10,660 nucleotides of DNA from a virus (taxonomy: Duplodnaviria; Heunggongvirae; Uroviricota; Caudoviricetes): the IMG/VR virus record IMGVR_UViG_2695420540_000012; one strand, 5' to 3'. Position 1 is the stretch's first letter, and the number at the start of each line of letters is the position of its first letter. The notes beneath the pieces were generated by a model that was given only the letters and a program-made list of their open reading frames with translations, searched no databases and was not told the origin of the DNA. The position numbers and the translations under genes were made by a program. This document shows, piece by piece, positions 1-10,660 of the stretch.

Positions 1-31
1 TACACTAAATCAGTAAGTTGGCAGCATCACC
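1..31 (-). mobile_element. IS1 terminal fragment (insA-proximal inverted-repeat end); body of element lies upstream of the window
   Basis: Bases 1-31 (tacactaaatcagtaagttggcagcatcacc) are identical to the last 31 bp of the complete IS1 copy at 4513-4543. Confidence 0.85.
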
Positions 32-32
32 C

Positions 33-143
33 CGCCACAGAACAATTATTGCTTTTGCCGTTGATGACAATAAAGTTTTTATCGCAGGCGTATACCACGG
101 TGGGCAAATCTATGAAACCGATTTTTTATCCAGTGCACCGTAA
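33..143 (+). pseudogene. 3' fragment of a RelE/ParE-superfamily-like toxin gene, 5' end removed by IS1
   Basis: Open frame starts directly at the IS1 boundary with no start codon and encodes RHRTIIAFAVDDNKVFIAGVYHGGQIYETDFLSSAP then stop (taa 141-143). The hydrophobic strand, turn, strand pattern resembles toxin C-termini, including the intact toxin at 9400-9690 (ILYRVTASSIEVVNIVHSRRQY). Assignment is by pattern only. Confidence 0.3.
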
Positions 144-183
144 AACCCCCATCCTTCAGGGCGTGGCGGATATCAAACTTTGG

Positions 184-1266
184 TCATTTTCTCTGGCTGA
201 TCTTTACCGGATAACCATCCCGAAGATCAATTAAGTGCTCCGGTTCAGAAGCAAACCATGCATAAGATCCCCACGCCAATTCTGGTATTGCCTTTTTAAA
301 AGGCAGAGCACTTCTGTCCATAAATGCCGTAAGGAATGCAAGATTTTTCTCGCTGAACCCAGCGTCAATAGCCAAATGAGTGAGAGTAACTTTTCGTTCC
401 CTGTTTATAGGCCCATCTGTCGCAACTACTTCAGTGAAAACTACAAGCATGTCCGAACCCGTTCGGTCCTCTCCCAAATCAATCAAAATAATATCTGGAA
501 GTGCTTTTGAGGCATCAATATTCAGCCCCAATGCTTTTGCCAATACATCATCCTGAGCAACAACTTTATTCCCGGATTCAGACAACCAGAGCACAGTTGG
601 ATTCTTAAGAAAATTAGGAGCAAAAACTTCGATGACGGCCTTAGCTATTGTACTTGACGGGCCCGGAGCTAAAGTTCTCTTCTCTCCATTTGGGAAAGTG
701 ACGACTACGGCATCAGCAGCAATCACTGCCCCTGATTTCAATAAACGCAACCTAGCAAGAGCGGCTTTGTTCAAATGATTTTCTTGCCAGGAACTTATTG
801 CACTCAGCAGCGAATCTCCTTCAAGCCCGGCATCAAAGAGTGCTGCAAAAGAGCGATTCAAACTGTAACGAGGACGAGAGGATGTGGTGGGTATACCTTT
901 ACGCTCAACAATTGCATTGCAAGGTATTAGGCCATTTTTTATAGTTTCATCACGTATTGGCTCACGCGTATTTTCCGCATACCATGCATCAGCAGGCCTT
1001 ATCTTTTGTTTAGAGAAAGTCATCTTTACCCAGCTTTCTCTGGACGCATCATCAGTAAGAGCAGCCTGCGAATCTCCCATACTTACAACCTGGCTGGGCC
1101 TTATCCATCGCCCCAGCCCCTCAACCGCACCAGCATAAAACATGACAAAAATTGTTTTTGCAGCTATTTCCCGAATTAAATATCCACGATTCTCAGTCCC
1201 TTCAGGGAAAATTAATTGTAATCTTTCCCGGATAACATTCAATGGGGGAACAACAGGCAGATTCAT
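184..1266 (-). CDS. Putative Type II restriction endonuclease (360 aa), partner of the upstream methyltransferase; possibly BsuBI/PstI-like
   Basis: Its ATG overlaps the methyltransferase stop in an ATGA overlap at 1263-1266, the classic coupled M then R arrangement. Contains a PD...EVV segment (ALPDIILIDLG...MLVVFTEVVATDG) reminiscent of a PD-(D/E)xK core, but the canonical lysine is not where expected. Family assignment is recollection, not a search. Confidence 0.5.
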   Translation of the reverse strand: MNLPVVPPLNVIRERLQLIFPEGTENRGYLIREIAAKTIFVMFYAGAVEGLGRWIRPSQVVSMGDSQAALTDDASRESWVKMTFSKQKIRPADAWYAENTREPIRDETIKNGLIPCNAIVERKGIPTTSSRPRYSLNRSFAALFDAGLEGDSLLSAISSWQENHLNKAALARLRLLKSGAVIAADAVVVTFPNGEKRTLAPGPSSTIAKAVIEVFAPNFLKNPTVLWLSESGNKVVAQDDVLAKALGLNIDASKALPDIILIDLGEDRTGSDMLVVFTEVVATDGPINRERKVTLTHLAIDAGFSEKNLAFLTAFMDRSALPFKKAIPELAWGSYAWFASEPEHLIDLRDGYPVKISQRK

Positions 1267-3095
1267 GCAATCATCACTCCATAGAAACCAGCGATAGTTC
1301 TCTCAATAATCCGTCTGTGGACGCCAGCATCAATTAACGATTGAATCTCCATCACCTGCTCCAGAGAAGGCAACGGGATTGAATTCAATTCATAGGCCGA
1401 AACAGCAACACTTCCGCTTATACACCTGAACGCCCGATCGACAACATGCGAATTAAGTAGCATATCAATAACATCAGGGCGAACCGCAGAGAACAATCCG
1501 TTTGAATATACAATATTAATATGGTTTTCAACTACTACGCCACCAGTTTCATCTATAAATCCCTGAGGTAAAATTGCCGCTAAAATCCTTCTGTCCTGTT
1601 CCTTCGATGTTGTCCGCTGAACAAGCACACATTCAGATTTTGTCACAAGGAAACCCTGTTGTGGGGTTATATCGATATAGGGAACATGATTTTTTCTGTC
1701 TGCACTAAAACGAAAACCAGCTGAAGTTATTGATTCCGCCCAGACTAATGGGTAGCTATTTTTTCCTTTCGTCGTACGCAACTGCGACTTAAATCGATTC
1801 CAGACTAACTGACCTGTAGAGACTGAGTATCCCAGATCAGCTAAACGCGTAGACATCTGTTTTAATACATTAAGAAAACAGGCATCATCTTTAACGCGTG
1901 GCAAAAGCCACGTTGCTCCACCTTTTTCTATATCAACATTACCTATTTTCTCAATTTTTGCTTTGTTCAACCCCTTAGGGACAAGTGAGGATACCTGGGC
2001 CCGAACTTTATGTTCTCCCGCCTTGAATGCTGTCAACATTGTTTCCTGGAGAACATCGTCAAAGACCCCATCCCTGTCAGTGACGAAATCAAGGGCATAC
2101 GGAGTAGTTTTTTCGGTCAAAAGGGTTCGCAGCGCGGTGAAATACTGCCCACCAAGAAAAGAAGTTGGCGTAAGAAATGCAATAACTCCTGTTTTCTCTT
2201 TAACCATGCGAACAGCTAAGTCGGTGAACAATCCATATAGATTTGCATGACCAAATAACGAACGAGAATATTTTTCTCTCGTTTTAATATCGAGAGTGAC
2301 ACGTCCGTAAGGCGGATTCCCTACCACAAGATCATAACCAGAAAATTTATCTTGCTGAAGCGCATCAGCAACAATAATTGTATCTTCAGGCAATCTACGT
2401 TTTACCTTTACACATAGTGGCATTAGTACAGATTCGAGCAATACCAAACTCATCCAAGCCGCAAATGGATCGATTTCTATCCCCTTTAAACGACGACTGA
2501 TTCTCCTCAACATCCATTCAGGGGAAGACCCCTTGTCTTTTTTTAACATTCGAATGGCTACTGGTGCCAAAAATGCACCGCCACCACACGCAGGATCAAT
2601 AACCGATGCATGAGAAAAATCAACACCAGACTTTTCAGCCAGGTCCAAGAGACGCGCTACCAAAGGTGGGGGGGTATAGTAAGCCCCCAATTCCGAACGG
2701 TAAGCGGATGGCAGCATTACCGTATAAATTGACCCAATCAGATATCCAGCGTCCTCCGCCGGAAATTGAGCAATAAGCTCACCTGTTCGTTCAGCGAGCT
2801 CGCGTGCATCACATGGAATGTCTTCTATGTAAACAGTGTGCGGTACTGCCCTCATTTTAATGCTGCTTTTTTGCTTTTTTGCAAGGGTATCCCAATATGC
2901 AGCTACGATGCTGAAGCAGTATGAGCGGGCATGCATCAACCTTGACTGCCCGGTTTTGTAATTGCCCGCATAACCTTTGGCCATGGCTTTACAAGTTTGA
3001 TATCTTTCCAGATTAGAAAACTCATTATCTGTAAAAAAATCAAAATGTTGCACATTCATAATGTAAAATCCTAATGTATCAAACATGCGGGCCAT
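1263..3095 (-). CDS. N6-adenine DNA methyltransferase, gamma-class, Eco57I/N6_Mtase-like (610 aa)
   Basis: Motif X-like GAYYTPPPLV, motif I VIDPACGGGAFL, motif IV VVGNPPYG in gamma-class order, followed by about 340 aa of probable target-recognition domain. Start is ambiguous: ATG at 3095 has no Shine-Dalgarno, and in-frame ATGs lie at about 3083 and 3059. Confidence 0.85.
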   Translation of the reverse strand: MARMFDTLGFYIMNVQHFDFFTDNEFSNLERYQTCKAMAKGYAGNYKTGQSRLMHARSYCFSIVAAYWDTLAKKQKSSIKMRAVPHTVYIEDIPCDARELAERTGELIAQFPAEDAGYLIGSIYTVMLPSAYRSELGAYYTPPPLVARLLDLAEKSGVDFSHASVIDPACGGGAFLAPVAIRMLKKDKGSSPEWMLRRISRRLKGIEIDPFAAWMSLVLLESVLMPLCVKVKRRLPEDTIIVADALQQDKFSGYDLVVGNPPYGRVTLDIKTREKYSRSLFGHANLYGLFTDLAVRMVKEKTGVIAFLTPTSFLGGQYFTALRTLLTEKTTPYALDFVTDRDGVFDDVLQETMLTAFKAGEHKVRAQVSSLVPKGLNKAKIEKIGNVDIEKGGATWLLPRVKDDACFLNVLKQMSTRLADLGYSVSTGQLVWNRFKSQLRTTKGKNSYPLVWAESITSAGFRFSADRKNHVPYIDITPQQGFLVTKSECVLVQRTTSKEQDRRILAAILPQGFIDETGGVVVENHINIVYSNGLFSAVRPDVIDMLLNSHVVDRAFRCISGSVAVSAYELNSIPLPSLEQVMEIQSLIDAGVHRRIIERTIAGFYGVMIA

Positions 3096-3154
3096 AACAT
3101 CTCATGGTGGCGCATAGCAAACTGGCCCGAAGAATATCACGCACCAAGTCGATC

Positions 3155-3170
3155 TCATAACCCGTTATGA
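3155..3170. promoter_or_regulatory. Perfect 7-2-7 palindrome TCATAAC-CC-GTTATGA in the methyltransferase upstream region; candidate operator
   Basis: Exact inverted repeat about 60 bp upstream of the methyltransferase start. A 2-nt spacer is too tight for an RNA hairpin, so a dimeric protein binding site is more likely. Confidence 0.3.
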
Positions 3171-3309
3171 CAATAAATCTTTGTAGCTGAACTCACTTGG
3201 TGATTTGTCAATCATTCCTGGCCTCCAGTTCGTCCTGAATCTCTTTATCGAGTTCACCGTATTTGTTAGTCCTCATCACTCACGACTTGACTTCCAGAAA
3301 TAACCTTGA

Positions 3310-3666
3310 TTATTCGGGGCTATATTTTGTCACCCTGCGTATCCGCGCTTTCGCATTACGCTCAATCTGGATTAGCTTTTCTATATTTTTTCGCCTTTCC
3401 CGCTCCTCCTGGCGCAAGAGCCTTACATCATCTGCCAGTCTGGTTTCTCTTTTCGCCACAGAGAGCATCCAGTCAAATGGCTCCACAACTGCACCGCAAA
3501 TTTTACAGCGGACCTGACGCTCTTTTTCGTCAACCCGGACAGAAGCGTGATGGCAATATGGTCTTTCCGATGGCTCATAAAGAAAATTAACCTGATTACG
3601 AGGGTTATCCTCTTTTACCGGAAATAAAACAATATTGCTTAACTCATCTTCTGGTTTTATTTCCAT
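3310..3666 (-). CDS. Hypothetical small zinc-ribbon protein with basic coiled-coil-like C-terminus (118 aa)
   Basis: Strong Shine-Dalgarno (AAGGAGAGGAGC) directly upstream of the ATG at 3664-3666. Cys/His cluster C-HH...C-x2-C, then an Arg/Glu-rich tail (RLLRQEERERRKNIEKLIQIERNAKARIRR). No family recognised. Confidence 0.6.
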   Translation of the reverse strand: MEIKPEDELSNIVLFPVKEDNPRNQVNFLYEPSERPYCHHASVRVDEKERQVRCKICGAVVEPFDWMLSVAKRETRLADDVRLLRQEERERRKNIEKLIQIERNAKARIRRVTKYSPE

Positions 3667-3723
3667 GCTCCTCTCCTTTGATGCGAATGCCAGCGGTAAT
3701 TGAAGCCTGATAGCTAATTTCAC

Positions 3724-3766
3724 TCACAGTACCGCCTCCTGAAAATCACCCTGATAGAAACAGAAG
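3724..3766 (-). pseudogene. 3' remnant of a paralogue of the hypothetical gene at 4616-5146, cut off by Ns and IS1
   Basis: Minus-strand reading gives ...FYQGDFQEAVL then stop, matching the C-terminus ...AFYQGNFQKVLL of the 4616-5146 gene. Nucleotide similarity continues through the downstream intergenic region (3661-3760 versus 4575-4653). Confidence 0.45.
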
Positions 3767-3790
3767 NNNNNNNNNGGTAATGACTCCAAC

Positions 3791-4294
3791 TTATTGATAG
3801 TGTTTTATGTTCAGATAATGCCCGATGACTTTGTCATGCAGCTCCACCGATTTTGAGAACGACAGCGACTTCCGTCCCAGCCGTGCCAGGTGCTGCCTCA
3901 GATTCAGGTTATGCCGCTCAATTCGCTGCGTATATCGCTTGCTGATTACGTGCAGCTTTCCCTTCAGGCGGGATTCATACAGCGGCCAGCCATCCGTCAT
4001 CCATATCACCACGTCAAAGGGTGACAGCAGGCTCATAAGACGCCCCAGCGTCGCCATAGTGCGTTCACCGAATACGTGCGCAACAACCGTCTTCCGGAGA
4101 CTGTCATACGCGTAAAACAGCCAGCGCTGGCGCGATTTAGCCCCGACATAGCCCCACTGTTCGTCCATTTCCGCGCAGACGATGACGTCACTGCCCGGCT
4201 GTATGCGCGAGGTTACCGACTGCGGCCTGAGTTTTTTAAGTGACGTAAAATCGTGTTGAGGCCAACGCCCATAATGCGTGCAGTTGCCCGGCAT
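3791..4294 (-). CDS. insB: IS1 InsB frame (expressed as InsAB' transposase by -1 frameshift)
   Basis: 167-aa frame (...[42 protein letters not shown]...) overlapping the insA 3' end at the A6C site. Confidence 0.9.
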
Positions 4295-4488
4295 CCAACG
4301 CCATTCATGGCCATATCAATGATTTTCTGGTGCGTACCGGGTTGAGAAGCGGTGTAAGTGAACTGCAGTTGCCATGTTTTACGGCAGTGAGAGCAGAGAT
4401 AGCGCTGATGTCCGGCAGTGCTTTTGCCGTTACGCACCACCCCGTCAGTAGCTGAACAGGAGGGACAGCTGATAGAAACAGAAGCCAC
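4213..4488 (-). CDS. insA: IS1 InsA (transposition inhibitor, N-terminal part of the InsAB' transposase)
   Basis: 91 aa beginning [24 protein letters not shown], the canonical InsA zinc-finger/HTH protein, with a GTG start. Confidence 0.95.
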
Positions 4489-4615
4489 TGGAGCACCTCA
4501 AAAACACCATCATACACTAAATCAGTAAGTTGGCAGCATCACCACAGTGCTGAACTTAATTATTCAGATTTTGGATTATGCTTTCTCTTCACGAAGTTCC
4601 GATTGTTAATTTGGC

Positions 4616-5146
4616 TCACAACAGCACCTTCTGAAAATTACCCTGATAGAAAGCCAGTACACGCTGCATAGCTTCGCTCTTCCGGCACTCGCTACAGATT
4701 ATGTTTTGACGCCTGTCGTAGCGGCGTATTTCTCCGTCTGGTAATGACCAGATAAGGTCCGGATCAACCACAGATGGTTTCTTCAGCTTTGCCCTCGAGA
4801 GTTTTTTGCGGGCGTTTTGCCAGTCCTTACGAGCCTGTTCAGACGGGAATAACCCGTANNNNNNNNNNNNNNNNNNNNNNNNNNNNNNNNNNNNNNNNNN
4901 NNNNNNNNNNNNNNNNNNNNNNNNNNNNNNNNNNNNNNNNNNNNNNNNNNNNNNNNNNNNNNNNNNNCCAGAGTTGTATACATCGCCACTGGCAACCAGC
5001 TCTCTGGCGAGAACACTCATCAGATATCTTGTCGCACCTGTCTTGGCTTCCAGTTGCCGCAACGTCTCGCGACCGCTCAGACGTACAAGTTCAACAACCT
5101 GCCCCTTAATTTTTTCCCGCTCTTCCTGTGTAAATACTTTTGCCAT
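4616..5146 (-). CDS. Hypothetical prophage protein, middle masked by Ns (4859-4967)
   Basis: Frame is maintained across the N run. N-terminus MAKVFTQEEREKIKGQVVELVRLSGRETLRQLEAKTGATRYLMSVLARELV is helix-turn-helix-like; C-terminus contains CSECRKSE. Starts 15 nt after the stop of the upstream gene. Confidence 0.5.
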   Translation of the reverse strand: MAKVFTQEEREKIKGQVVELVRLSGRETLRQLEAKTGATRYLMSVLARELVASGDVYNSXXXXXXXXXXXXXXXXXXXXXXXXXXXXXXXXXXXXXYGLFPSEQARKDWQNARKKLSRAKLKKPSVVDPDLIWSLPDGEIRRYDRRQNIICSECRKSEAMQRVLAFYQGNFQKVLL

Positions 5147-5161
5147 AAGCGCCCCCGGCAA

Positions 5162-5887
5162 TCACTTTTCCGACACAATACGACCGGAGGAATCGACAAT
5201 CTGTCGAACAATATCCCGGTGCTTGTTCAGCTCCCGCAACGCGGCGCAGACACGCTCCCACTTCTGGACATGACTTTTCGCCCGACGCAGTTCGCGGTTT
5301 GCCATATGCAGCGATGGTAAAACCAGGTCATCCGCTTGCGTTTCGGTGAACGATGGCAACGACTGCACAATGTCCGCCACAGTTTCTGTTTTAATTTCTT
5401 CCTGTGTTGCAGCTTCCTGTACCGGTAACGCAACACCTGCTGGCTGAGGAAAGACTTTACCATCCGTTTCCGCTATGGATGCGGCTTTCGGCTCTGCCGG
5501 TAAATCAGCGCCCGGTATGCAGTACCGAAATTTACCGCCCTGATTCACGCGAATCAGACGCCCTTTGCTGATTGCCATGGCCAGCGATGAATTCGCCCGG
5601 CGGGAGGTAATCCCGAACATCAGTGCCAGCTCATCCGCCGTTTGTGGGCCATGTTGTTCAATCGCCTCAGTCAGCATTTGCGCTGTCACTTTCGGTACCG
5701 GTGACACTGGTTCACTTTCACCAGCCTGAATCAGCCACCACATCGAACCCTTGTTATCCGCTTCACCACGGCGCTTCAGTTTCCACAGTTCGTTGACCGC
5801 ATCTTCACGGCTGATTCCAAGGCGGGACGCCACCACATGTGAAGAGGCTCTTTTCAGTGCTTTCAGTGCGTCAAATACAGTTTCCAT
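5162..5887 (-). CDS. Hypothetical prophage protein with two winged-helix-like segments (241 aa from the GGAGG-supported ATG)
   Basis: GGAGG lies 8 nt upstream of the ATG at 5885-5887. Helix-turn-helix-like segments [27 protein letters not shown] and [29 protein letters not shown]. No family assigned. Confidence 0.5.
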
Positions 5888-5908
5888 TAAAACATCCTCC
5901 AACAAAAA

Positions 5909-6300
5909 TTACTTCACAACTCCCGGAAAGCTGACATTTGAACGCCAGCTATCCCAGTTAAACGTCACCCACCGACAACCGTTCATGGTCATGCGGTCCA
6001 TAATCCTCTCACCAAGAAGCGTGCTCATTGCGGCATGATTCAGGTTTGTTAACATCCCGACACTGCACAGTGATGCTGTCCGGCGATCAATTATCTGGTG
6101 CAATACCACCTGCTCGTTTTTCGTCTCCCGCTGAATGCCTATTTCATCCAGGACCAGCAAATCAACCCCGCAAAGCTCCTGTAAAAATTTTTCACCGGAT
6201 TTGCCGTTGTCGTAGCTGTCATGCAACACGCTCATGACATCAGACTCGGTGACGATAATCACGCTGCGCCCCTTCGCCATCAGCCGGTTACCCATCGCCG
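5909..6300 (-). CDS. DnaC-like helicase loader (IstB-like AAA+), C-terminal part only; N-terminal part hidden in Ns
   Basis: KGRSVIIVTESDVMS...LLVLDEIGIQRETKNEQVVLHQIIDRRTASLCSVGMLTNLNHAAMSTLLGERIMDRMTMNGCRWVTFNWDSWRS aligns closely with the E. coli DnaC / Rac YdaV C-terminal half as remembered, including Walker B (DEIG). Walker A would lie in the masked region. Confidence 0.85.
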
Positions 6301-6777
6301 NNNNNNNNNNNNNNNNNNNNNNNNNNNNNNNNNNNNNNNNNNNNNNNNNNNNNNNNNNNNNNNNNNNNNNNNNNNNNNNNNNNNNNNNNNNNNNNNNNNN
6401 NNNNNNNNNNNNNNNNNNNNNNNNNNNNNNNNNNNNNNNNNNNNNNNNNNNNNNNNNNNNNNNNNNNNNNNNNNNNNNNNNNNNNNNNNNNNNNNNNNNN
6501 NNNNNNNNNNNNNNNNNNNNNNNNNNNNNNNNNNNNNNNNNNNNNNNNNNNNNNNNNNNNNNNNNNNNNNNNNNNNNNNNNNNNNNNNNNNNNNNNNNNN
6601 NNNNNNNNNNNNNNNNNNNNNNNNNNNNNNNNNNNNNNNNNNNTCCACCGNNNNNNNNNNNNNNNNNNNNNNNNNNNNNNNNNNNNNNNNNNNNNNNNNN
6701 NNNNNNNNNNNNNNNNNNNNNNNNNNNNNNNNNNNNNNNNNNNNNNNNNNNNNNNNNNNNNNNNNNNNNNNNNNNNN

Positions 6778-7817
6778 TCGGTATCCGGTTCAGAAATATG
6801 ATTCACACAACGCTGGTTGTTCGTGCCGCTTACCGGGAGCAACCAGGGGTTTTCAAAATTCCGGTCCGGCCCAAAAAACGTCGTCGCTCGCTGAACAAAT
6901 TCCGTTCCCGCTTTCCCGGTCGCCGCCAGGTATCTCGCGTAACGCCTCACACCATCCAGCATGGTCTCTGGTGGCACCCCCTCGCGCAATCTGGCCTTCC
7001 AGGCACTGAATGCGGATTTCTTCGGGTTTGCCCCGGCACGCAACGGGTATTCCCGCCAGACCTGTTCGAACACATCCGGATAATCCACTCGTCCCACAGG
7101 CTGCCCGGTGTTTTCCGGGGCTACCCGATCGGCTTCCCGCTGAATGGCGGAATCGGCTTCAGGCTGCTGCAGTTGGAGTGATTGCTCCGGCCTTGCGGTC
7201 ATCACCTGCTGCACAGCGCCCGAATCGGCTTTCAGCGCATACGCTGAATCGGCTTCCGGTGTCGAGCCTGCTGGCTGACCAGGATTGACGGTCTGAACAT
7301 CCCCTGCCTGGTTCGTGGCGTTTTTTACGCCATGGACCATAGTGTTTTGATCTTCTTTATCTGTATCTTTATCTGTATCTGTCGTGACTCGTCGTGACAT
7401 GTGCGTGACATTTCGTGACGCGCCGTGACAATCGCCATTTTGTTCCCGCTTTCTTTCCCTCTCTCGCTGCGCCCTCTTGCGCTCTGCAGGAGATTTTGCG
7501 GTTTGCGAAATATTGCCGTTGTCCTCTTTAAGCACCTGGCGTTTTTCCCATCCAGTGATTAAATCACCATCAAGTACCCGCCCCTGCATCGTCTGCAAAA
7601 TTGAATCAATTACCTCTTCTGTCACGTCGAGCGCACTTGCCAAATCTTCTGTCGTGACATCAATGTGACCTCGCGTGACATTTCGTGACGCGCTCACCAG
7701 GAGGTGGATATACACTGCCATCACTGTTGCAATTGGCTGCCCTGACACCCTGGCAATTGTTCGCCACTTAGGGTCATTTGGCATGTCATGCCATAATCTG
7801 AGCCAGGCGTTAGCCAT
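6778..7817 (-). CDS. Putative phage replication initiator / replisome organiser (O-like), 3' end hidden in Ns
   Basis: Shine-Dalgarno GAGGTGA 4 nt upstream of the ATG at 7815-7817. Lies directly upstream of the DnaC-like gene and contains two iteron clusters, as lambda O contains ori. The six-frame track runs this frame through the N block to 6288, but the true stop is not visible. Confidence 0.6.
7356..7379. repeat. Tandem 12-bp direct repeat (tttatctgtatc x2) next to iteron cluster A
   Basis: Exact tandem duplication at 7356-7367 and 7368-7379, followed immediately by the first CGTGAC iteron. Confidence 0.7.
7383..7429. repeat. Iteron cluster A: five CGTGAC copies at 10-11 bp phasing (candidate ori)
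   Basis: CGTGAC at 7383, 7393, 7404, 7414 and 7424. Includes the first copy of a 21-bp exact direct repeat GCGTGACATTTCGTGACGCGC (7403-7423). Confidence 0.65.
7653..7693. repeat. Iteron cluster B: four (C/T)GTGAC copies at 10-11 bp phasing (candidate ori)
   Basis: CGTGAC/TGTGAC at 7653, 7664, 7674 and 7684, plus an inverted GTCACG at 7621. Includes the second copy of the 21-bp repeat (7673-7693). Confidence 0.65.
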
Positions 7818-7888
7818 ACTCACCTCTTCTGATACCGAATCTTTTTACTCACGAGTTGCCGGGAGCGATTCGATATGGCTATTGTCAG

Positions 7889-8314
7889 TCAATGTACTGC
7901 CACAGCATTTCCTGCCGGGCCACCACGGTTCATCTGATTGAAACCGGCGATTGCCACTGCGACAAAATCATCAGCGTCTCTCACCAGTCGTTCATGCGTC
8001 TCCACCAGTTCCCGAAAATAAGCTGAACTGTGGCTGCGCATTCGAGCCACCAGCGGAGGTGGCATTGCCCTTTCGATCGCAGGTAACAACGCCTGAATTT
8101 TTTCAACAGCGTCAGGGGTGTCTTTATCCAGCCAACGGAAAATCTTTTGGGTGTTGAGATAAAGCGTGTTGTGCTTGCTGTCGTTATGCAGAACCGGAAA
8201 CGTCATTCCCAGTTCGAAATAAACCCTGGTTATTTCAGCTGCCGGAACTTTTTCACCGTCCGGATGCGCCCAGGCTTTCATCGCCATGCGGATGTGTTCA
8301 TGCTTGATTTTCAT
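7889..8314 (-). CDS. CII-like / YdaT-family prophage regulator (141 aa)
   Basis: N-terminus MKIKHEHI matches what I recall of Rac YdaT. Its ATG overlaps the stop of the upstream Cro-like gene in an ATGA overlap at 8311-8314, and it sits between the Cro-like and initiator genes as in Rac (ydaS-ydaT-ydaU-ydaV). Confidence 0.55.
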   Translation of the reverse strand: MKIKHEHIRMAMKAWAHPDGEKVPAAEITRVYFELGMTFPVLHNDSKHNTLYLNTQKIFRWLDKDTPDAVEKIQALLPAIERAMPPPLVARMRSHSSAYFRELVETHERLVRDADDFVAVAIAGFNQMNRGGPAGNAVAVH

Positions 8315-8574
8315 GAATCAACCCCCGCCGATGGTTGTGTGTTAGCCTGAAACTCAGCAGGCAAGCCGTCAGTTGGGTTGGGGTAGGTTTTACTGTCAAT
8401 CTCATGTGGGGTCACCACCCATCCCGTTGCTTCACACCAACGTAATATTTTTTCTCCTGTAAGTTTTGCACGCCCCGTTATAACGTGGCTGACCATCCCT
8501 TGGGATGCGCCAACAATCTCAGCAAATGAACTCTGGGTTATATGAAAATGATGCAAATATTCTCCAAGATTCAT
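8311..8574 (-). CDS. Cro-like HTH regulator (YdaS/Cro family), 87 aa from the ATG at 8572-8574
   Basis: Helix-turn-helix ITQSSFAEIVGASQGMVSHVITGRAKLTGEKI. Transcribed divergently from the repressor across the operator region. The track's longer ORF begins at a TTG (8601); the ATG has a GGGCGG purine patch upstream. Confidence 0.7.
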   Translation of the reverse strand: MNLGEYLHHFHITQSSFAEIVGASQGMVSHVITGRAKLTGEKILRWCEATGWVVTPHEIDSKTYPNPTDGLPAEFQANTQPSAGVDS

Positions 8575-8610
8575 AATCCGCCCTATGTGATGTGTTACCA
8601 ATGCATAATT

Positions 8611-8650
8611 AATAGCACTGTTATTTTTAAAAGTAAATAGTGATGCTATT
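8611..8650. promoter_or_regulatory. OR-like operator pair with divergent promoters
   Basis: Two 15-bp imperfect palindromes, AATAGCACTGTTATT (8611-8625) and AATAGTGATGCTATT (8636-8650), consensus AATAGC-N3-GCTATT. On the minus strand TTTACT (-35-like) and TATTAAT (-10-like) overlap them. Confidence 0.6.
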
Positions 8651-8685
8651 TCAAAGTGATTAGCAATCTTATTAGAATTGGATGT

Positions 8686-9186
8686 ATGAAAAGAAAATCA
8701 TTGTCAGACACCGACCTCAACGCCGCCAGAAGACTGAAAGAAATCTGGATGGCAAAGAAATCTCAGTTGGGATTGACTCAGGAACGTGCGGCGGAAATTA
8801 TGGGGTTTTCAACACAAGGGGCGGTAAGTCACTACCTAAATGGTCAAACCCCACTAAACCTTGAGGCTGTTCTAAAGTTTGCTGGCTTACTGAAAGTTCC
8901 CCCTGAGTCAATCAGGCCAGACATGGTAGATTTGCTGCAAATTGCAAGGATGTATTGTCGAGAACCACAGCAAGATAACATAGTCGCATTACCAGCAGAC
9001 ACAGAACAAACAGAGGATGAACTACCGTTTGCCGTAGAGCCGATGGAACGAGATTTAATCCATACGTTCAGAGCTTTTCCGAAAGAAGATCAAGAACACA
9101 TGCTTCAGGAGATGAAAGATAAAAAAGAATCAATGGATCGTACGGTTGCGCGGTGGTTAGCTGCACAAAAAGGCCGTCGCGCCTAA
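8686..9186 (+). CDS. Prophage repressor, XRE/CI-type HTH (RacR/CI analogue); start could instead be GTG at 8656
   Basis: Helix-turn-helix LGLTQERAAEIMGFSTQGAVSHYLNGQ. Sits divergent to the Cro-like gene. No LexA/S24-type G-x-S-M ... K peptidase motif is visible in the C-terminal half. Confidence 0.7.
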   Translation: MKRKSLSDTDLNAARRLKEIWMAKKSQLGLTQERAAEIMGFSTQGAVSHYLNGQTPLNLEAVLKFAGLLKVPPESIRPDMVDLLQIARMYCREPQQDNIVALPADTEQTEDELPFAVEPMERDLIHTFRAFPKEDQEHMLQEMKDKKESMDRTVARWLAAQKGRRA

Positions 9187-9205
9187 ATCAGAGGAGATAT
9201 GTAAA

Positions 9206-9400
9206 ATGAGTACAGTCCTTTCCCCAATGGTTTCAGAATTTGAGACAGTTGAGCAAGAAAATAGTTACAACGAATGGCTGCGGGCCAAAGTAGCAGCAAG
9301 CCTCGCGGATCCCCGCCCGGCGATTCCGCATGATGAGGTAATGGCGGAAATGGAACAAATTATTGCCCAAATTGCTGCTGCAACTCACAGAGGTGAATAA
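9206..9400 (+). CDS. Putative type II antitoxin (ParD-type partner of the ParE/RelE toxin), 64 aa
   Basis: Shine-Dalgarno GAGGAG 9 nt upstream. Small acidic protein whose TAA stop overlaps the toxin ATG (TAATG at 9398-9402). Family assignment is by context and general resemblance only. Confidence 0.55.
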   Translation: MSTVLSPMVSEFETVEQENSYNEWLRAKVAASLADPRPAIPHDEVMAEMEQIIAQIAAATHRGE

Positions 9401-9690
9401 TGTTACCCGTTTTATGGCTACCATCTGCTCGTGATGATTTGCGCCAGATCGTAGCCTACATAGCTAAAGAAAATCCCGCGGCAGCACGCAGAATGAAAAT
9501 TCGAATTGAAACATCCGTTTTGCCGCTCACAGAGCATCCTTACCTGTATCCTCCAAGCGAGCGAGTTCTTGGTCTTCGTGAAATTGTAACTCATCCTAAC
9601 TACATCATCCTTTACCGAGTAACAGCATCAAGCATAGAAGTAGTAAATATTGTGCATTCTCGAAGACAGTATCCAGGCAAAAACAGTTAA
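9400..9690 (+). CDS. ParE/RelE-family type II toxin (96 aa)
   Basis: Family-typical pattern: N-terminal DDLRQIVAYIAKENPAAARRM and C-terminal LREIVTHPNYIILYRVTASSIEVVNIVHSRRQY. Translationally coupled to the upstream antitoxin. Confidence 0.75.
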   Translation: MLPVLWLPSARDDLRQIVAYIAKENPAAARRMKIRIETSVLPLTEHPYLYPPSERVLGLREIVTHPNYIILYRVTASSIEVVNIVHSRRQYPGKNS

Positions 9691-9706
9691 TTATTCCCGC
9701 CGACAG

Positions 9707-9728
9707 AACCACCTTAGGGTGGTTTTTT
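9707..9728 (+). terminator. Rho-independent terminator after the repressor/antitoxin/toxin genes
   Basis: Stem AACCACC / GGTGGTT with loop TTAG, followed by a six-T run. Confidence 0.6.
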
Positions 9729-9746
9729 CTTGCCCCAACAAAAAAC

Positions 9747-9787
9747 AATAGCGATGCTATTTACATCAAAAAAATAATGATGCTATT
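9747..9787. promoter_or_regulatory. OL-like operator pair with a rightward promoter
   Basis: AATAGCGATGCTATT (9747-9761, perfect 6-3-6 palindrome) and AATAATGATGCTATT (9773-9787), same consensus as the 8611-8650 pair. TTTACA (9760-9765) and TATTGT (9784-9789) with an 18-bp spacer overlap them. Confidence 0.55.
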
Positions 9788-9968
9788 GTTTCAGGCGTCA
9801 ACCCACCCCGCCCCACAGAATGCAGGGCAATACTTCGAGTTACCAGACAGTGGTCAGGGGTTAAGTAGCCAGCCCGAGGCGTAAGAACATGACGGCAGGG
9901 TTCAATCTTTAACTATGCAGCAGGTTTTTTGTTCCGCCACCCCGGCGTTAAGGGGAAATGAGGTCAGC

Positions 9969-10121
9969 ATGGATACTATCGATCTTGGCAACAACGAATC
10001 TCTGGTGTGCGGCGTGTTCCCTAACCAGGATGGAACGTTTACCGCCATGACGTATACCAAAAGCAAAACGTTTAAAACCGAATCTGGCGCGCGTTGCTGG
10101 TTAGCCAGAAACACTGACTGA
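9969..10121 (+). CDS. Small prophage early protein (50 aa), Rac YdaG/YdaF-like
   Basis: GAGG 7 nt upstream of the ATG. MDTIDLGNNESLVCGVFPNQDGTFTAMTYTKSKTFK resembles what I recall of the small Rac proteins next to racR. Confidence 0.5.
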   Translation: MDTIDLGNNESLVCGVFPNQDGTFTAMTYTKSKTFKTESGARCWLARNTD

Positions 10122-10132
10122 TGAGGCTGACG

Positions 10133-10498
10133 ATGGAATTTAAAGATTTACCGTCTGATGTACAGAAAACAGCAGCTCATACATTGCATTCTGTGCTGCG
10201 AGAAATCGGGAAAGATATTGCAAGCGAGCCAGCAAAAGATCTGGCCCGGAAAATCAAGACCGCTTTCGTTGAGCTTTATAATGTTGGCACTGACTCTGAA
10301 ACTGTCGAGACCAAGACCGTAAGTTCACCAATATTCTCACTTGAGCCAAGCGTATTATCAGGTGAAATATGCACCGAGATTTCCAGCGAACTGCTTCCGG
10401 TAATACGAGAAGCAATTCGCCGTCGCGGTTTGGATGGAAGTTATGATCATGACGTTCTGCAAGTTCTCAGGACAATGGTGACTTCACTGGGGATTTGA
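10133..10498 (+). CDS. Hypothetical prophage protein (121 aa from MEFKDL)
   Basis: GAGG 7 nt upstream of the ATG at 10133. Acidic, no recognisable motifs. An alternative ATG at 10121 overlaps the upstream stop. Confidence 0.45.
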   Translation: MEFKDLPSDVQKTAAHTLHSVLREIGKDIASEPAKDLARKIKTAFVELYNVGTDSETVETKTVSSPIFSLEPSVLSGEICTEISSELLPVIREAIRRRGLDGSYDHDVLQVLRTMVTSLGI

Positions 10499-10630
10499 TC
10501 CCTGCGTCCTCTAAGCTTTTGATATAGCGGTCCTCCAAGAAGCGGTAAATTTTGTCGAAATCATCTTTTCCCTCTGGTTTATTCAGAGGATTACAGGACC
10601 CGTAAGTAGCGGCATACATTTCAACCGTTT

Positions 10631-10660
10631 GGTAATGACTCCAACTTATTGATAGTGTTT
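10631..10660 (-). mobile_element. IS1 start (insB-proximal inverted-repeat end), same orientation as the other two copies; element continues beyond the window
   Basis: Bases 10631-10660 are identical to 3776-3805 (ggtaatgactccaacttattgatagtgttt). Confidence 0.85.

Follow-up and report, generated by a model that had tools for sequence, protein, structure and literature searches.

PstI and BsuBI, founders of the Pfam families PF06616 and PF17728, form with SdaI (PDB 2ixs), an 8-bp cutter whose target is CCTGCAGG, one family of Type II restriction endonucleases. BsuBI, PstI and AplI recognise CTGCAG (PMC13458397), as does EcoGIII of Stx phage, a PstI/BsuBI-like system of Stx2 prophages that restricts lambda-like phages (PMC6602927). 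Here we analyse a window of 10,660 nucleotides, the whole stretch of DNA under study, and find in it a methyltransferase gene (M) followed by an endonuclease gene (R) of this family. We consider it very probable that the pair forms a two-gene Type II restriction-modification (R-M) cassette, carried within the nin region by a lambdoid prophage of which only a remnant is left in Shigella sonnei. The system is an ordinary one, already annotated in public S. sonnei genomes and known to the databases; the exact M and R proteins are named in NCBI for this species and are found on at least 1000 contigs, and partial cluster members exist as well. Beyond annotation its significance is small, as this is a textbook Type II cassette.

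Both genes of the operon are encoded on the minus strand, M at 1263..3059 (or 3095) and R at 184..1266. At their junction, which reads ...GCATGAATC..., the stop codon TGA of M overlaps the start codon ATG of R by four nucleotides (ATGA, 1263..1266, minus strand; direct reading of the sequence), an arrangement that we read as translational coupling of R to M. The initial annotation had proposed a coupled Type II R-M operon with M ahead of R, and this is borne out by the 4-nt overlap and by the match of both proteins to PADLOC type II R-M models over their full length. The layout is conserved. Of 78 loci from different species in which both genes are present, 76 have M immediately ahead of R on one strand. 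The commonest junction, seen at 36 of the 78 loci when the start of R is extrapolated from the tblastn match, is again a 4-nt overlap in which R starts with ATG or GTG. The PstI system is organised differently, its genes being transcribed divergently. Carriers of the cassette include two lambdoid contexts, a P2-like prophage, conjugative plasmids and chromosomes, and they are spread over many Proteobacteria; at the DNA level the phage collection yielded no match.

R, a protein of 360 aa, has both domains of the BsuBI/PstI/SdaI family. It matches PF17728 over residues 10-172 (E=1.2e-30, 106.6 bits) and PF06616 over residues 188-349 (E=9.3e-45, 152.2 bits), the cut-offs being 27, and is laid out as an N-terminal HTH DNA-binding domain followed by a C-terminal PD-(D/E)XK nuclease domain. 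PstI and BsuBI share these Pfam domains, which R matches well above the gathering scores, and their methyltransferases are of the same class as M; the distance of R to these two enzymes is judged through the BsuBI-type enzyme of Stx phage rather than by direct alignment. In phmmer R matches SdaI 2ixs with E=1.8e-16, and SdaI, the only solved relative of R, is likewise the sole significant PDB match of its AF2 model (Foldseek, E=2.9e-16). The PADLOC profile REase_II PDLC03589 is matched over the full length (E=2.8e-128), and two other type II endonuclease profiles, PDLC03420 (317 positions) and PDLC03412 (324 positions), far more weakly. The dedicated PADLOC profiles, which derive from REBASE reference proteins, hint that characterised close relatives may be on record there. 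The suggestion that the 360-aa partner is BsuBI/PstI-like is supported by the two Pfam matches and by the SdaI-like fold with its PD...E residues, and similarity to a nuclease family is evident.

The region 421..501 (minus strand) encodes L256-P-D258-I-I ... T278-E279-V-V-A, the putative catalytic core of R. When R is aligned with sequences among which are SdaI and the BsuBI-type enzyme, P257, D258, E279 and V281 are invariant, as are K234 and E213; within the HTH-domain match the segment Y96-x4-R101-E102-x2-R105 is invariant through both relatives. Despite the shared HTH and PD-(D/E)XK domains, R and SdaI are only about 21-26% identical, the N-terminal part of R is longer, and the lysine of the E-x-x-K of SdaI (K251) is replaced by alanine. 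Does loss of this lysine mean a dead enzyme? We reject this reading; the BsuBI-type enzyme, of the CTGCAG-restricting EcoGIII group, lacks the lysine too. Because that enzyme has a threonine at this position, the alanine is no argument for an inactive R.

M has the motif order that defines the gamma class. A motif X-like GAYYTP (2670..2687, minus strand), which aligns with GRVETPP of M.TaqI, lies N-terminal to the AdoMet-binding motif I, DPACGGGAF (2571..2597, minus strand), and to the catalytic motif IV, NPPY (2307..2318, minus strand; N248, P249, P250 and Y251 in 598-aa numbering). In 610-aa numbering the three stand at residues 137, 167 and 260 and are followed by about 340 C-terminal residues; all are invariant among 56 homologues. 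Pfam assigns 51.4 bits to Eco57I (cut-off 25.3) and 37.6 bits to N6_Mtase (cut-off 20.4). The PADLOC type II MTase model is matched over the full length of M, and a second MTase_II profile, PDLC03227, over residues 119-590. The structure model is confident, has a fold of the M.TaqI or HsdM type, and is matched best by gamma-class m6A methyltransferases. By motif order, Pfam scores and predicted structure, M is a gamma-class N6-adenine DNA methyltransferase, as the initial annotation had it.

Two details of that description change. The open reading frame 3095..1263 does exist and gives the 610-aa form found in RefSeq, but the second ATG, at 3059, is the likely start and would yield 598 aa. Nearly all relatives are 595-598 aa long, the Serratia version has nothing matching the 12 codons upstream of 3059, and this ATG is preceded by an AGGA at a distance of 9 nt. 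Similarly, the N-terminal region that had been described as an extension of unassigned role is present (about 124 residues, 2688..3059, minus strand), but it is conserved family-wide and has an HsdM-like fold, and it is an N-terminal helical domain of the family.

This domain sets M beside the Type I HsdM subunits and the Type IIL/IIG enzymes (StySJI M, MmeI, DrdV), its best structural matches, which also combine an N-terminal helical domain with a gamma-class catalytic domain. M differs from them in having its own TaqI/MmeI-like target-recognition domain, in needing no S subunit and in lacking a nuclease fusion. Single-chain versions of the pair are also on record. In fused enzymes of the same lineage, represented by PADLOC PDLC03359 (840 aa) and phrog_1639 (838 aa) and probably YenI-like, the first half matches M and the second half R; since one profile matches M and then R, each of the two genes is the counterpart of one half of a known single-chain enzyme, here separated into reading frames with overlapping stop and start. 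EcoGIII is close in organisation: it too is a prophage-borne Type II system of E. coli, its M precedes its R with a 4-nt overlap, its R falls in the same Pfam family, and its m6A methyltransferase is of the gamma type and has an alignable target-recognition domain. It differs in sequence (26-27% identity), in its M, which has 459 aa and no N-terminal helical domain, in its R of 317 aa, and in location, as EcoGIII adjoins cI in the immunity region whereas the present system lies in the nin region.

Given these features, the pair would work as follows. M would act as a stand-alone enzyme composed of the HsdM-type N-terminal helical domain, a Rossmann catalytic domain (DPACGGG, NPPY) and a C-terminal target-recognition domain, methylating one adenine on each strand of a site that is short and probably palindromic. 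R, built like SdaI, would read the same site through its N-terminal HTH domain and cut unmethylated DNA with its C-terminal PD-(D/E)XK domain (P257-D258, E279). M would be translated first, with the ATGA overlap coupling translation of R to that of M, and we infer that this order and coupling favour protection ahead of cleavage. In a lysogen the pair would restrict incoming phage and plasmid DNA and would also resist its own loss through post-segregational killing; its persistence as an intact unit while the prophage decays may owe something to this.

Which site is recognised? A CTGCAG-type sequence is the leading guess for the target, with a likelihood that we place a little under one half. 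It is plausible because the characterised relatives that can be traced, four of them in the papers cited above together with SdaI, share this core. The presence of one M, with one target-recognition domain, next to one R suggests, following established Type IIP practice, that the target is symmetric. We give roughly even chances to the alternative that the pair, as a Type II system of the BsuBI/PstI/SdaI family, is active but has another, possibly new, recognition sequence. The identity to the two alignable relatives, the EcoGIII-like BsuBI-type enzyme and SdaI, is only 24-27% for R and 26% for M, and both proteins are larger than those of the BsuBI-type pair (R 360 against 317 aa, M 598 against 459 aa), so specificity may differ. 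R carries about 45 extra residues in its N-terminal, DNA-binding half and M an extra N-terminal domain, and PADLOC sets the R/M subfamily (PDLC03589, PDLC03338) apart from the weakly matching profiles PDLC03420 and PDLC03412. Against another target stand the CTGCAG core common to the characterised members that can be traced, the target-recognition domain of M, which aligns end to end with that of the BsuBI-type M (E=5e-27), and the invariance of Y96-x4-R101-E102-x2-R105 from R to SdaI and the BsuBI-type enzyme. A full-text search of the open literature that could be searched, RefSeq accession numbers included, found neither experimental or methylome data nor a target for this system, and papers in which BsuBI/PstI genes of Vibrio, of SGI1-related islands and of Burkholderia methylomes come up give no motif for the subfamily. 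The supplementary data of Blow et al. 2016 include none of the five host genera looked for.

A question remains, does the pair restrict at all? R might be silent or inactive, in which case M would serve as an orphan or epigenetic methyltransferase; alternatively, the two genes might be unexpressed relics of a dead prophage. We regard this as improbable. It is true that the prophage is a remnant in a species rich in pseudogenes and IS elements, that M has no clear promoter upstream, and that EcoGIII, the relative from Stx phage, strongly alters gene expression (PMC6602927). Moreover, three long-read assemblies carry 1-nt deletions in M together with an intact R. On the other hand, both open reading frames are full length and nearly invariant in the S. 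sonnei loci read (99.9-100% identity across chromosomes for the exact sequences), they recur unchanged on the contigs counted above, and the catalytic residues of M and R are all intact. As for the frameshifts, they fall in homopolymers (C7, A7), and the long-read assemblies concerned have further split genes, a pattern typical of sequencing error, and for this reason they are probably errors; we therefore set aside phase variation of M or a silent R as their explanation. Genuine deletions would require a silent R in those three strains.

With a working Type II cassette as the preferred reading, the state of the locus in S. sonnei, an important pathogen, deserves mention: the restriction genes are intact in every chromosomal locus read. 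Knowledge of the target would help transformation of S. sonnei and the use of phage against it. One may even imagine that the widespread subfamily of 598-aa M and 360-aa R recognises a site other than CTGCAG. In that case, because the pair is intact throughout these loci, on a dead prophage, S. sonnei would possess a species-wide obstacle to gene flow that is as yet uncharacterised, together with an additional m6A mark. This is a speculative proposal that we hold to be rather unlikely. The same dead prophage may in turn be stabilised by the pair through post-segregational killing.

How did the cassette reach this position? The initial annotation described the operon as cargo between direct copies of IS1, and two IS1 sequences in the same orientation do bracket 32-3766 in the window. 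One is complete (insA and insB, 768 bp, 3776..4543, minus strand), identified by Pfam IS1 domains and 100% identical to S. sonnei IS1 copies; of the other, 31 nt are visible at 1..31 (minus strand), the left end of an element that runs off the window, identical to the IS1 start at 4543..4513. Both are neighbours of the operon only. Between R and the downstream IS1 lies a remnant of a parE toxin gene (33..143, plus strand), convergent with R and cut by IS1, of which the last 36 codons are left; their translation equals the C-terminal end of ParE (103 aa) from E. coli FDAARGOS_943. The block consisting of the 118-aa phage ORF upstream of M (hyp118), M, R and parE has a collinear counterpart, 99-99.8% identical, in the nin region of lambdoid prophages that are intact and free of IS1, those of E. 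coli FDAARGOS_943 and VL7S7; the parE/parD pair and the upstream phage ORF are present there too. On complete S. sonnei chromosomes the downstream IS1 truncates the prophage inside parE and joins the remnant to a chromosomal gene with mannitol-dehydrogenase domains, as is expected for an IS1 insertion or deletion cutting a prophage. The upstream, complete IS1 is particular to this window and absent from all 16 S. sonnei chromosomal loci read, where only the downstream element is present. It sits on a piece bounded by N-runs, the non-IS1 part of which is a paralogous allele, and it may accordingly be strain-specific or a scaffolding artefact; the 9 bases beside it (3767-3775), where one half of a target-site duplication of about 9 bp would fall, are N, and the outer end of the other IS1 lies beyond the window.

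That an IS1 composite transposon carried the operon into this genome as a passenger is thus largely refuted and very improbable: the flanking IS1 sequences in one orientation and the higher AT content of the segment favour it, but the passenger sits natively in IS1-free prophages, the 16 S. sonnei loci hold the downstream IS1 alone between truncated parE and chromosomal genes, the shared cassette does not end at IS1, and the upstream IS1 lies on the piece bounded by N-runs. As a block of accessory genes, the R-M operon belongs to the nin region of a decayed lambda-like prophage and was not brought by the adjacent IS1. This placement, the likely start of M and the identity of its N-terminal domain are among the modest gains of the analysis.

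The limits of the cassette, about 3.0 kb in all, are sharp. The part common to other elements runs from about 179 to about 3226, and likeness to the versions in Kluyvera and in viral contigs starts at about 3218-3226 and is lost farther upstream; the operon does lie in the segment 184-3312 originally marked, though the shared unit has these other ends. Ahead of M the cassette has a conserved leader (3060..3226, minus strand). As a consensus scan upstream of M gave no sigma-70 site, the promoter call comes from our own reading of the letters, in which TGATATTCT at 3131-3139 is a weak candidate for an extended -10.

Beyond the leader and outside the R-M system lies the 118-aa ORF (3310..3666, minus strand), a zinc-ribbon/coiled-coil protein of phage family phrog_1621 (E=1.1e-54, function not assigned) without a match in PADLOC or NCBIfam. 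We considered it as a C-protein controller and rejected this: its match is zinc-ribbon-like, no HTH is detected, and its family is a phage one. No called gene of like size or domain lies upstream of M at the loci of Kluyvera, Serratia and Burkholderia. No small HTH controller gene is seen upstream of the operon or within it.

The composition of the segment had been described as AT-rich. With N excluded, G+C is 0.438 for 32-3756, 0.492 for 4534-10660 and 0.53 for IS1, which puts the cassette at 43.8% against about 49-51% for the remaining prophage; the AT-richness is therefore real but modest. The horizontal acquisition suggested at the outset is upheld, the cassette being compositionally distinct and mobile, with homes in lambdoid and P2-like prophages, conjugative plasmids and chromosomes.

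The methyltransferase gene M (610-aa ORF, 3095..1263, minus strand) and the endonuclease gene R (360-aa ORF, 1266..184, minus strand) form a coupled operon, as the initial annotation had proposed; both are intact, belong to known families, keep their order and overlap in other genomes and are mobile. As GCATGAATC shows, the stop codon TGA of M is nested within the start codon ATG of R at 1263-1266. Relatives of R are encoded at 80 loci from different species; 78 of them hold a relative of M as well, which in 76 cases sits immediately upstream and on the same strand. The commonest junction among the species loci is a 4-nt overlap. Dedicated PADLOC type II models match both proteins from end to end (E=3.1e-299 for M and E=2.8e-128 for R). 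The first half of a single 840-aa profile matches M and the second half matches R, therefore fused versions exist. A consensus scan found no promoter; on our reading, TGATATTCT at 3131-3139, within the conserved leader, is a possible extended -10 candidate.

The gamma-class assignment of the earlier reading is borne out, and so is its tentative BsuBI/PstI-like one. R carries the two BsuBI/PstI-family domains of Pfam at high score, and its only solved relative is SdaI (2ixs; sequence E=1.8e-16, fold E=2.9e-16). We aligned R with alphaproteobacterial relatives (47-56% identity), a BsuBI-type Stx-phage enzyme and SdaI; K234, E213, P257, D258, E279 and V281 are invariant throughout, as is the segment Y96-x4-R101-E102-x2-R105. 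A lysine that SdaI carries three residues past the catalytic glutamate is alanine in R, whereas the BsuBI-type enzyme, of the EcoGIII group, has threonine. Given that this group restricts CTGCAG (PMC6602927), the difference is no sign of a dead enzyme, and we reject the view that R is inactive for want of an SdaI-type lysine.

METHYLTRANSFERASE, the M protein, scores above the cut-offs for both Eco57I and N6_Mtase (Pfam). GAYYTP at 137, DPACGGGAF at 167 and NPPY at 260 (610-aa numbering), with about 340 residues C-terminal to NPPY, read as the gamma-class motif order. Three parts make up M: a helical domain of the HsdM type, the gamma-class catalytic domain and a target-recognition domain of its own that is TaqI/MmeI-like. 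In Stx phages the BsuBI-type methyltransferase has 459 aa and lacks the N-terminal helical domain; it is alignable with M from NPPY to the C-terminus (26% identity, E=5e-27). Homologues of M are almost all 595-598 aa long, with 56-89% identity over 97-100% of the length. Because the Serratia copy has no counterpart to the upstream 12 codons and an AGGA precedes the 3059 ATG by 9 nt, translation most likely starts at 3059, yielding 598 aa. Two homopolymer tracts lie within M, A7 at 2538-2544 and C7 at 2668-2674, the latter coding for PPP of the motif X region. M is split and R intact in three assemblies, two with C6 and one with A6. In the draft assemblies JBEAAA... and JBDZZZ... other genes are split too, and near the split M of the complete genome CP022459.1 gene calls vary in length. 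These splits are likely sequencing errors, though they may reflect real slippage.

What is the target of this pair? SdaI cuts CCTGCAGG. R shares only 24-27% identity with the two relatives that could be aligned, an EcoGIII-like BsuBI-type enzyme and SdaI, and belongs to a subfamily of its own that is very well conserved. CTGCAG is cut by BsuBI, PstI and AplI, with which one Acinetobacter homologue shares only 32.7-59.9% identity (PMC13458397), and is recognised by the EcoGIII system of Stx phages (PMC6602927). We regard CTGCAG as a serious candidate, at slightly less than an even chance. From what is established for Type IIP systems, M would methylate an adenine on each strand of a short site, presumably symmetric because there is one methyltransferase with one recognition domain. 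R would read the same site through its HTH domain and cut via its PD-(D/E)XK domain, and the overlap would let R be made only after M. Such a system would restrict unmodified incoming DNA and penalise its own loss.

The finding is real but ordinary. In Shigella sonnei the exact sequences are already named "N-6 DNA methylase" (M) and "BsuBI/PstI family type II restriction endonuclease" (R) by NCBI, and at least 1000 contigs are on record as carrying them. Family, gene pair and even exact sequences are thus annotated, the anatomy holds nothing unusual, and earlier studies have dealt with homologous phage-borne systems.

What proved wrong is the proposal that the operon is cargo between direct IS1 copies. 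The block hyp118 (a 118-aa phage ORF)-M-R-parE/parD is collinear with the nin region of E. coli lambdoid prophages that are intact and have no IS1, at 99.8% identity in FDAARGOS_943 and 99.0% in VL7S7. The downstream IS1 (1-31, partial) cuts parE: the remnant at 33-143 (plus strand) codes only for the last 36 residues of the ParE toxin, therefore this IS1 inserted into parE. In S. sonnei the antitoxin partner parD and the entire late prophage region are lost; beyond the IS1, complete chromosomes continue with the chromosomal genes for mannitol dehydrogenase and YdfZ. The upstream IS1 (3776-4543) lies on a piece bounded by N runs (3767-3775 and 4859-4967), its surroundings mismatch in allele, and at all 16 S. 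sonnei chromosomal loci read, DUF977 and the 118-aa ORF have no IS1 between them; it therefore reflects either a rearrangement specific to this strain or an artefact of scaffolding. The restriction-modification genes are phage accessory genes at their native phage position.

Other carriers include a Kluyvera lambdoid prophage (nin region, with different neighbour genes), a Serratia P2-like prophage (between the replication and portal genes), a Burkholderia chromosome, plasmids, about half of them predicted conjugative, and 25 viral contigs. DNA similarity to these copies starts at about 3218-3226 and stops at about 179-191, hence the mobile unit is a leader of about 165 nt, M and R. The suspected AT-richness holds: the cassette has 43.8% G+C against 49-51% in the remainder of the prophage, which fits horizontal acquisition by the phage. 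Hyp118 (3310-3666, minus strand; phrog_1621, function unknown) matches a zinc ribbon weakly and has a tail predicted to be coiled coil; it accompanies the cassette in prophages of E. coli and Shigella only. In the Burkholderia cepacia chromosomal copy a 78-aa ORF (L005, 5965-6201), for which Pfam gave no match, stops 4 nt short of M and could encode a branch-specific controller-type protein.

The window covers part of a lambdoid prophage, with early-right genes on the minus strand, in the order cro-like, YdaT-like, replication protein, DnaC-like, DUF1627 and DUF977, then IS1, the 118-aa ORF, M, R, the parE fragment and the start of the second IS1. Complete S. sonnei chromosomes (e.g. CP032523.1) are 100% identical to it over 1-3760, 5088-6300 and 6778-10660. 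Four N runs (3767-3775, 4859-4967, 6301-6643 and 6651-6777) look like scaffold gaps of estimated size, with unreliable local structure nearby: compared with these chromosomes, the 109-N run is inserted, its flanks abutting there (1 nt apart), and 6301-6777 is 91 nt longer than the matching interval. All 31 mismatches to the S. sonnei reference lie in 4607-5087 (the Ren-like DUF977 gene), and no other part of the window departs from these references. The 3' half of DUF977 with 72 nt downstream (the non-IS1 part) has 98% identity to an alternative lambdoid allele, one widespread in E. coli, which points to a patch of recombination or to a contig misplaced from a paralogous prophage. Within 3751-3775, beside the nine Ns at the upstream IS1, the minus strand reads CTTCTGTTTCTATCAG, identical to a string within IS1 at 4485..4470 and joined to the phage sequence GGTGATTTTCAGG at the 10-nt stretch TTTCTATCAG, which occurs both in IS1 and at the end of the DUF977 gene. 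Here the window has CTTCTG where the S. sonnei reference has ACCGGC; a junction formed at microhomology or an artefact of assembly could account for this. At 9206-9690 (plus strand), genes for 64 and 96 aa share a single base, 9400, and their S. sonnei counterparts carry PaaA2 and ParE_toxin Pfam domains. They are apparently an intact PaaA2-ParE toxin-antitoxin pair adjoining the prophage repressor region, and thus a second stabilising module on the same prophage remnant.
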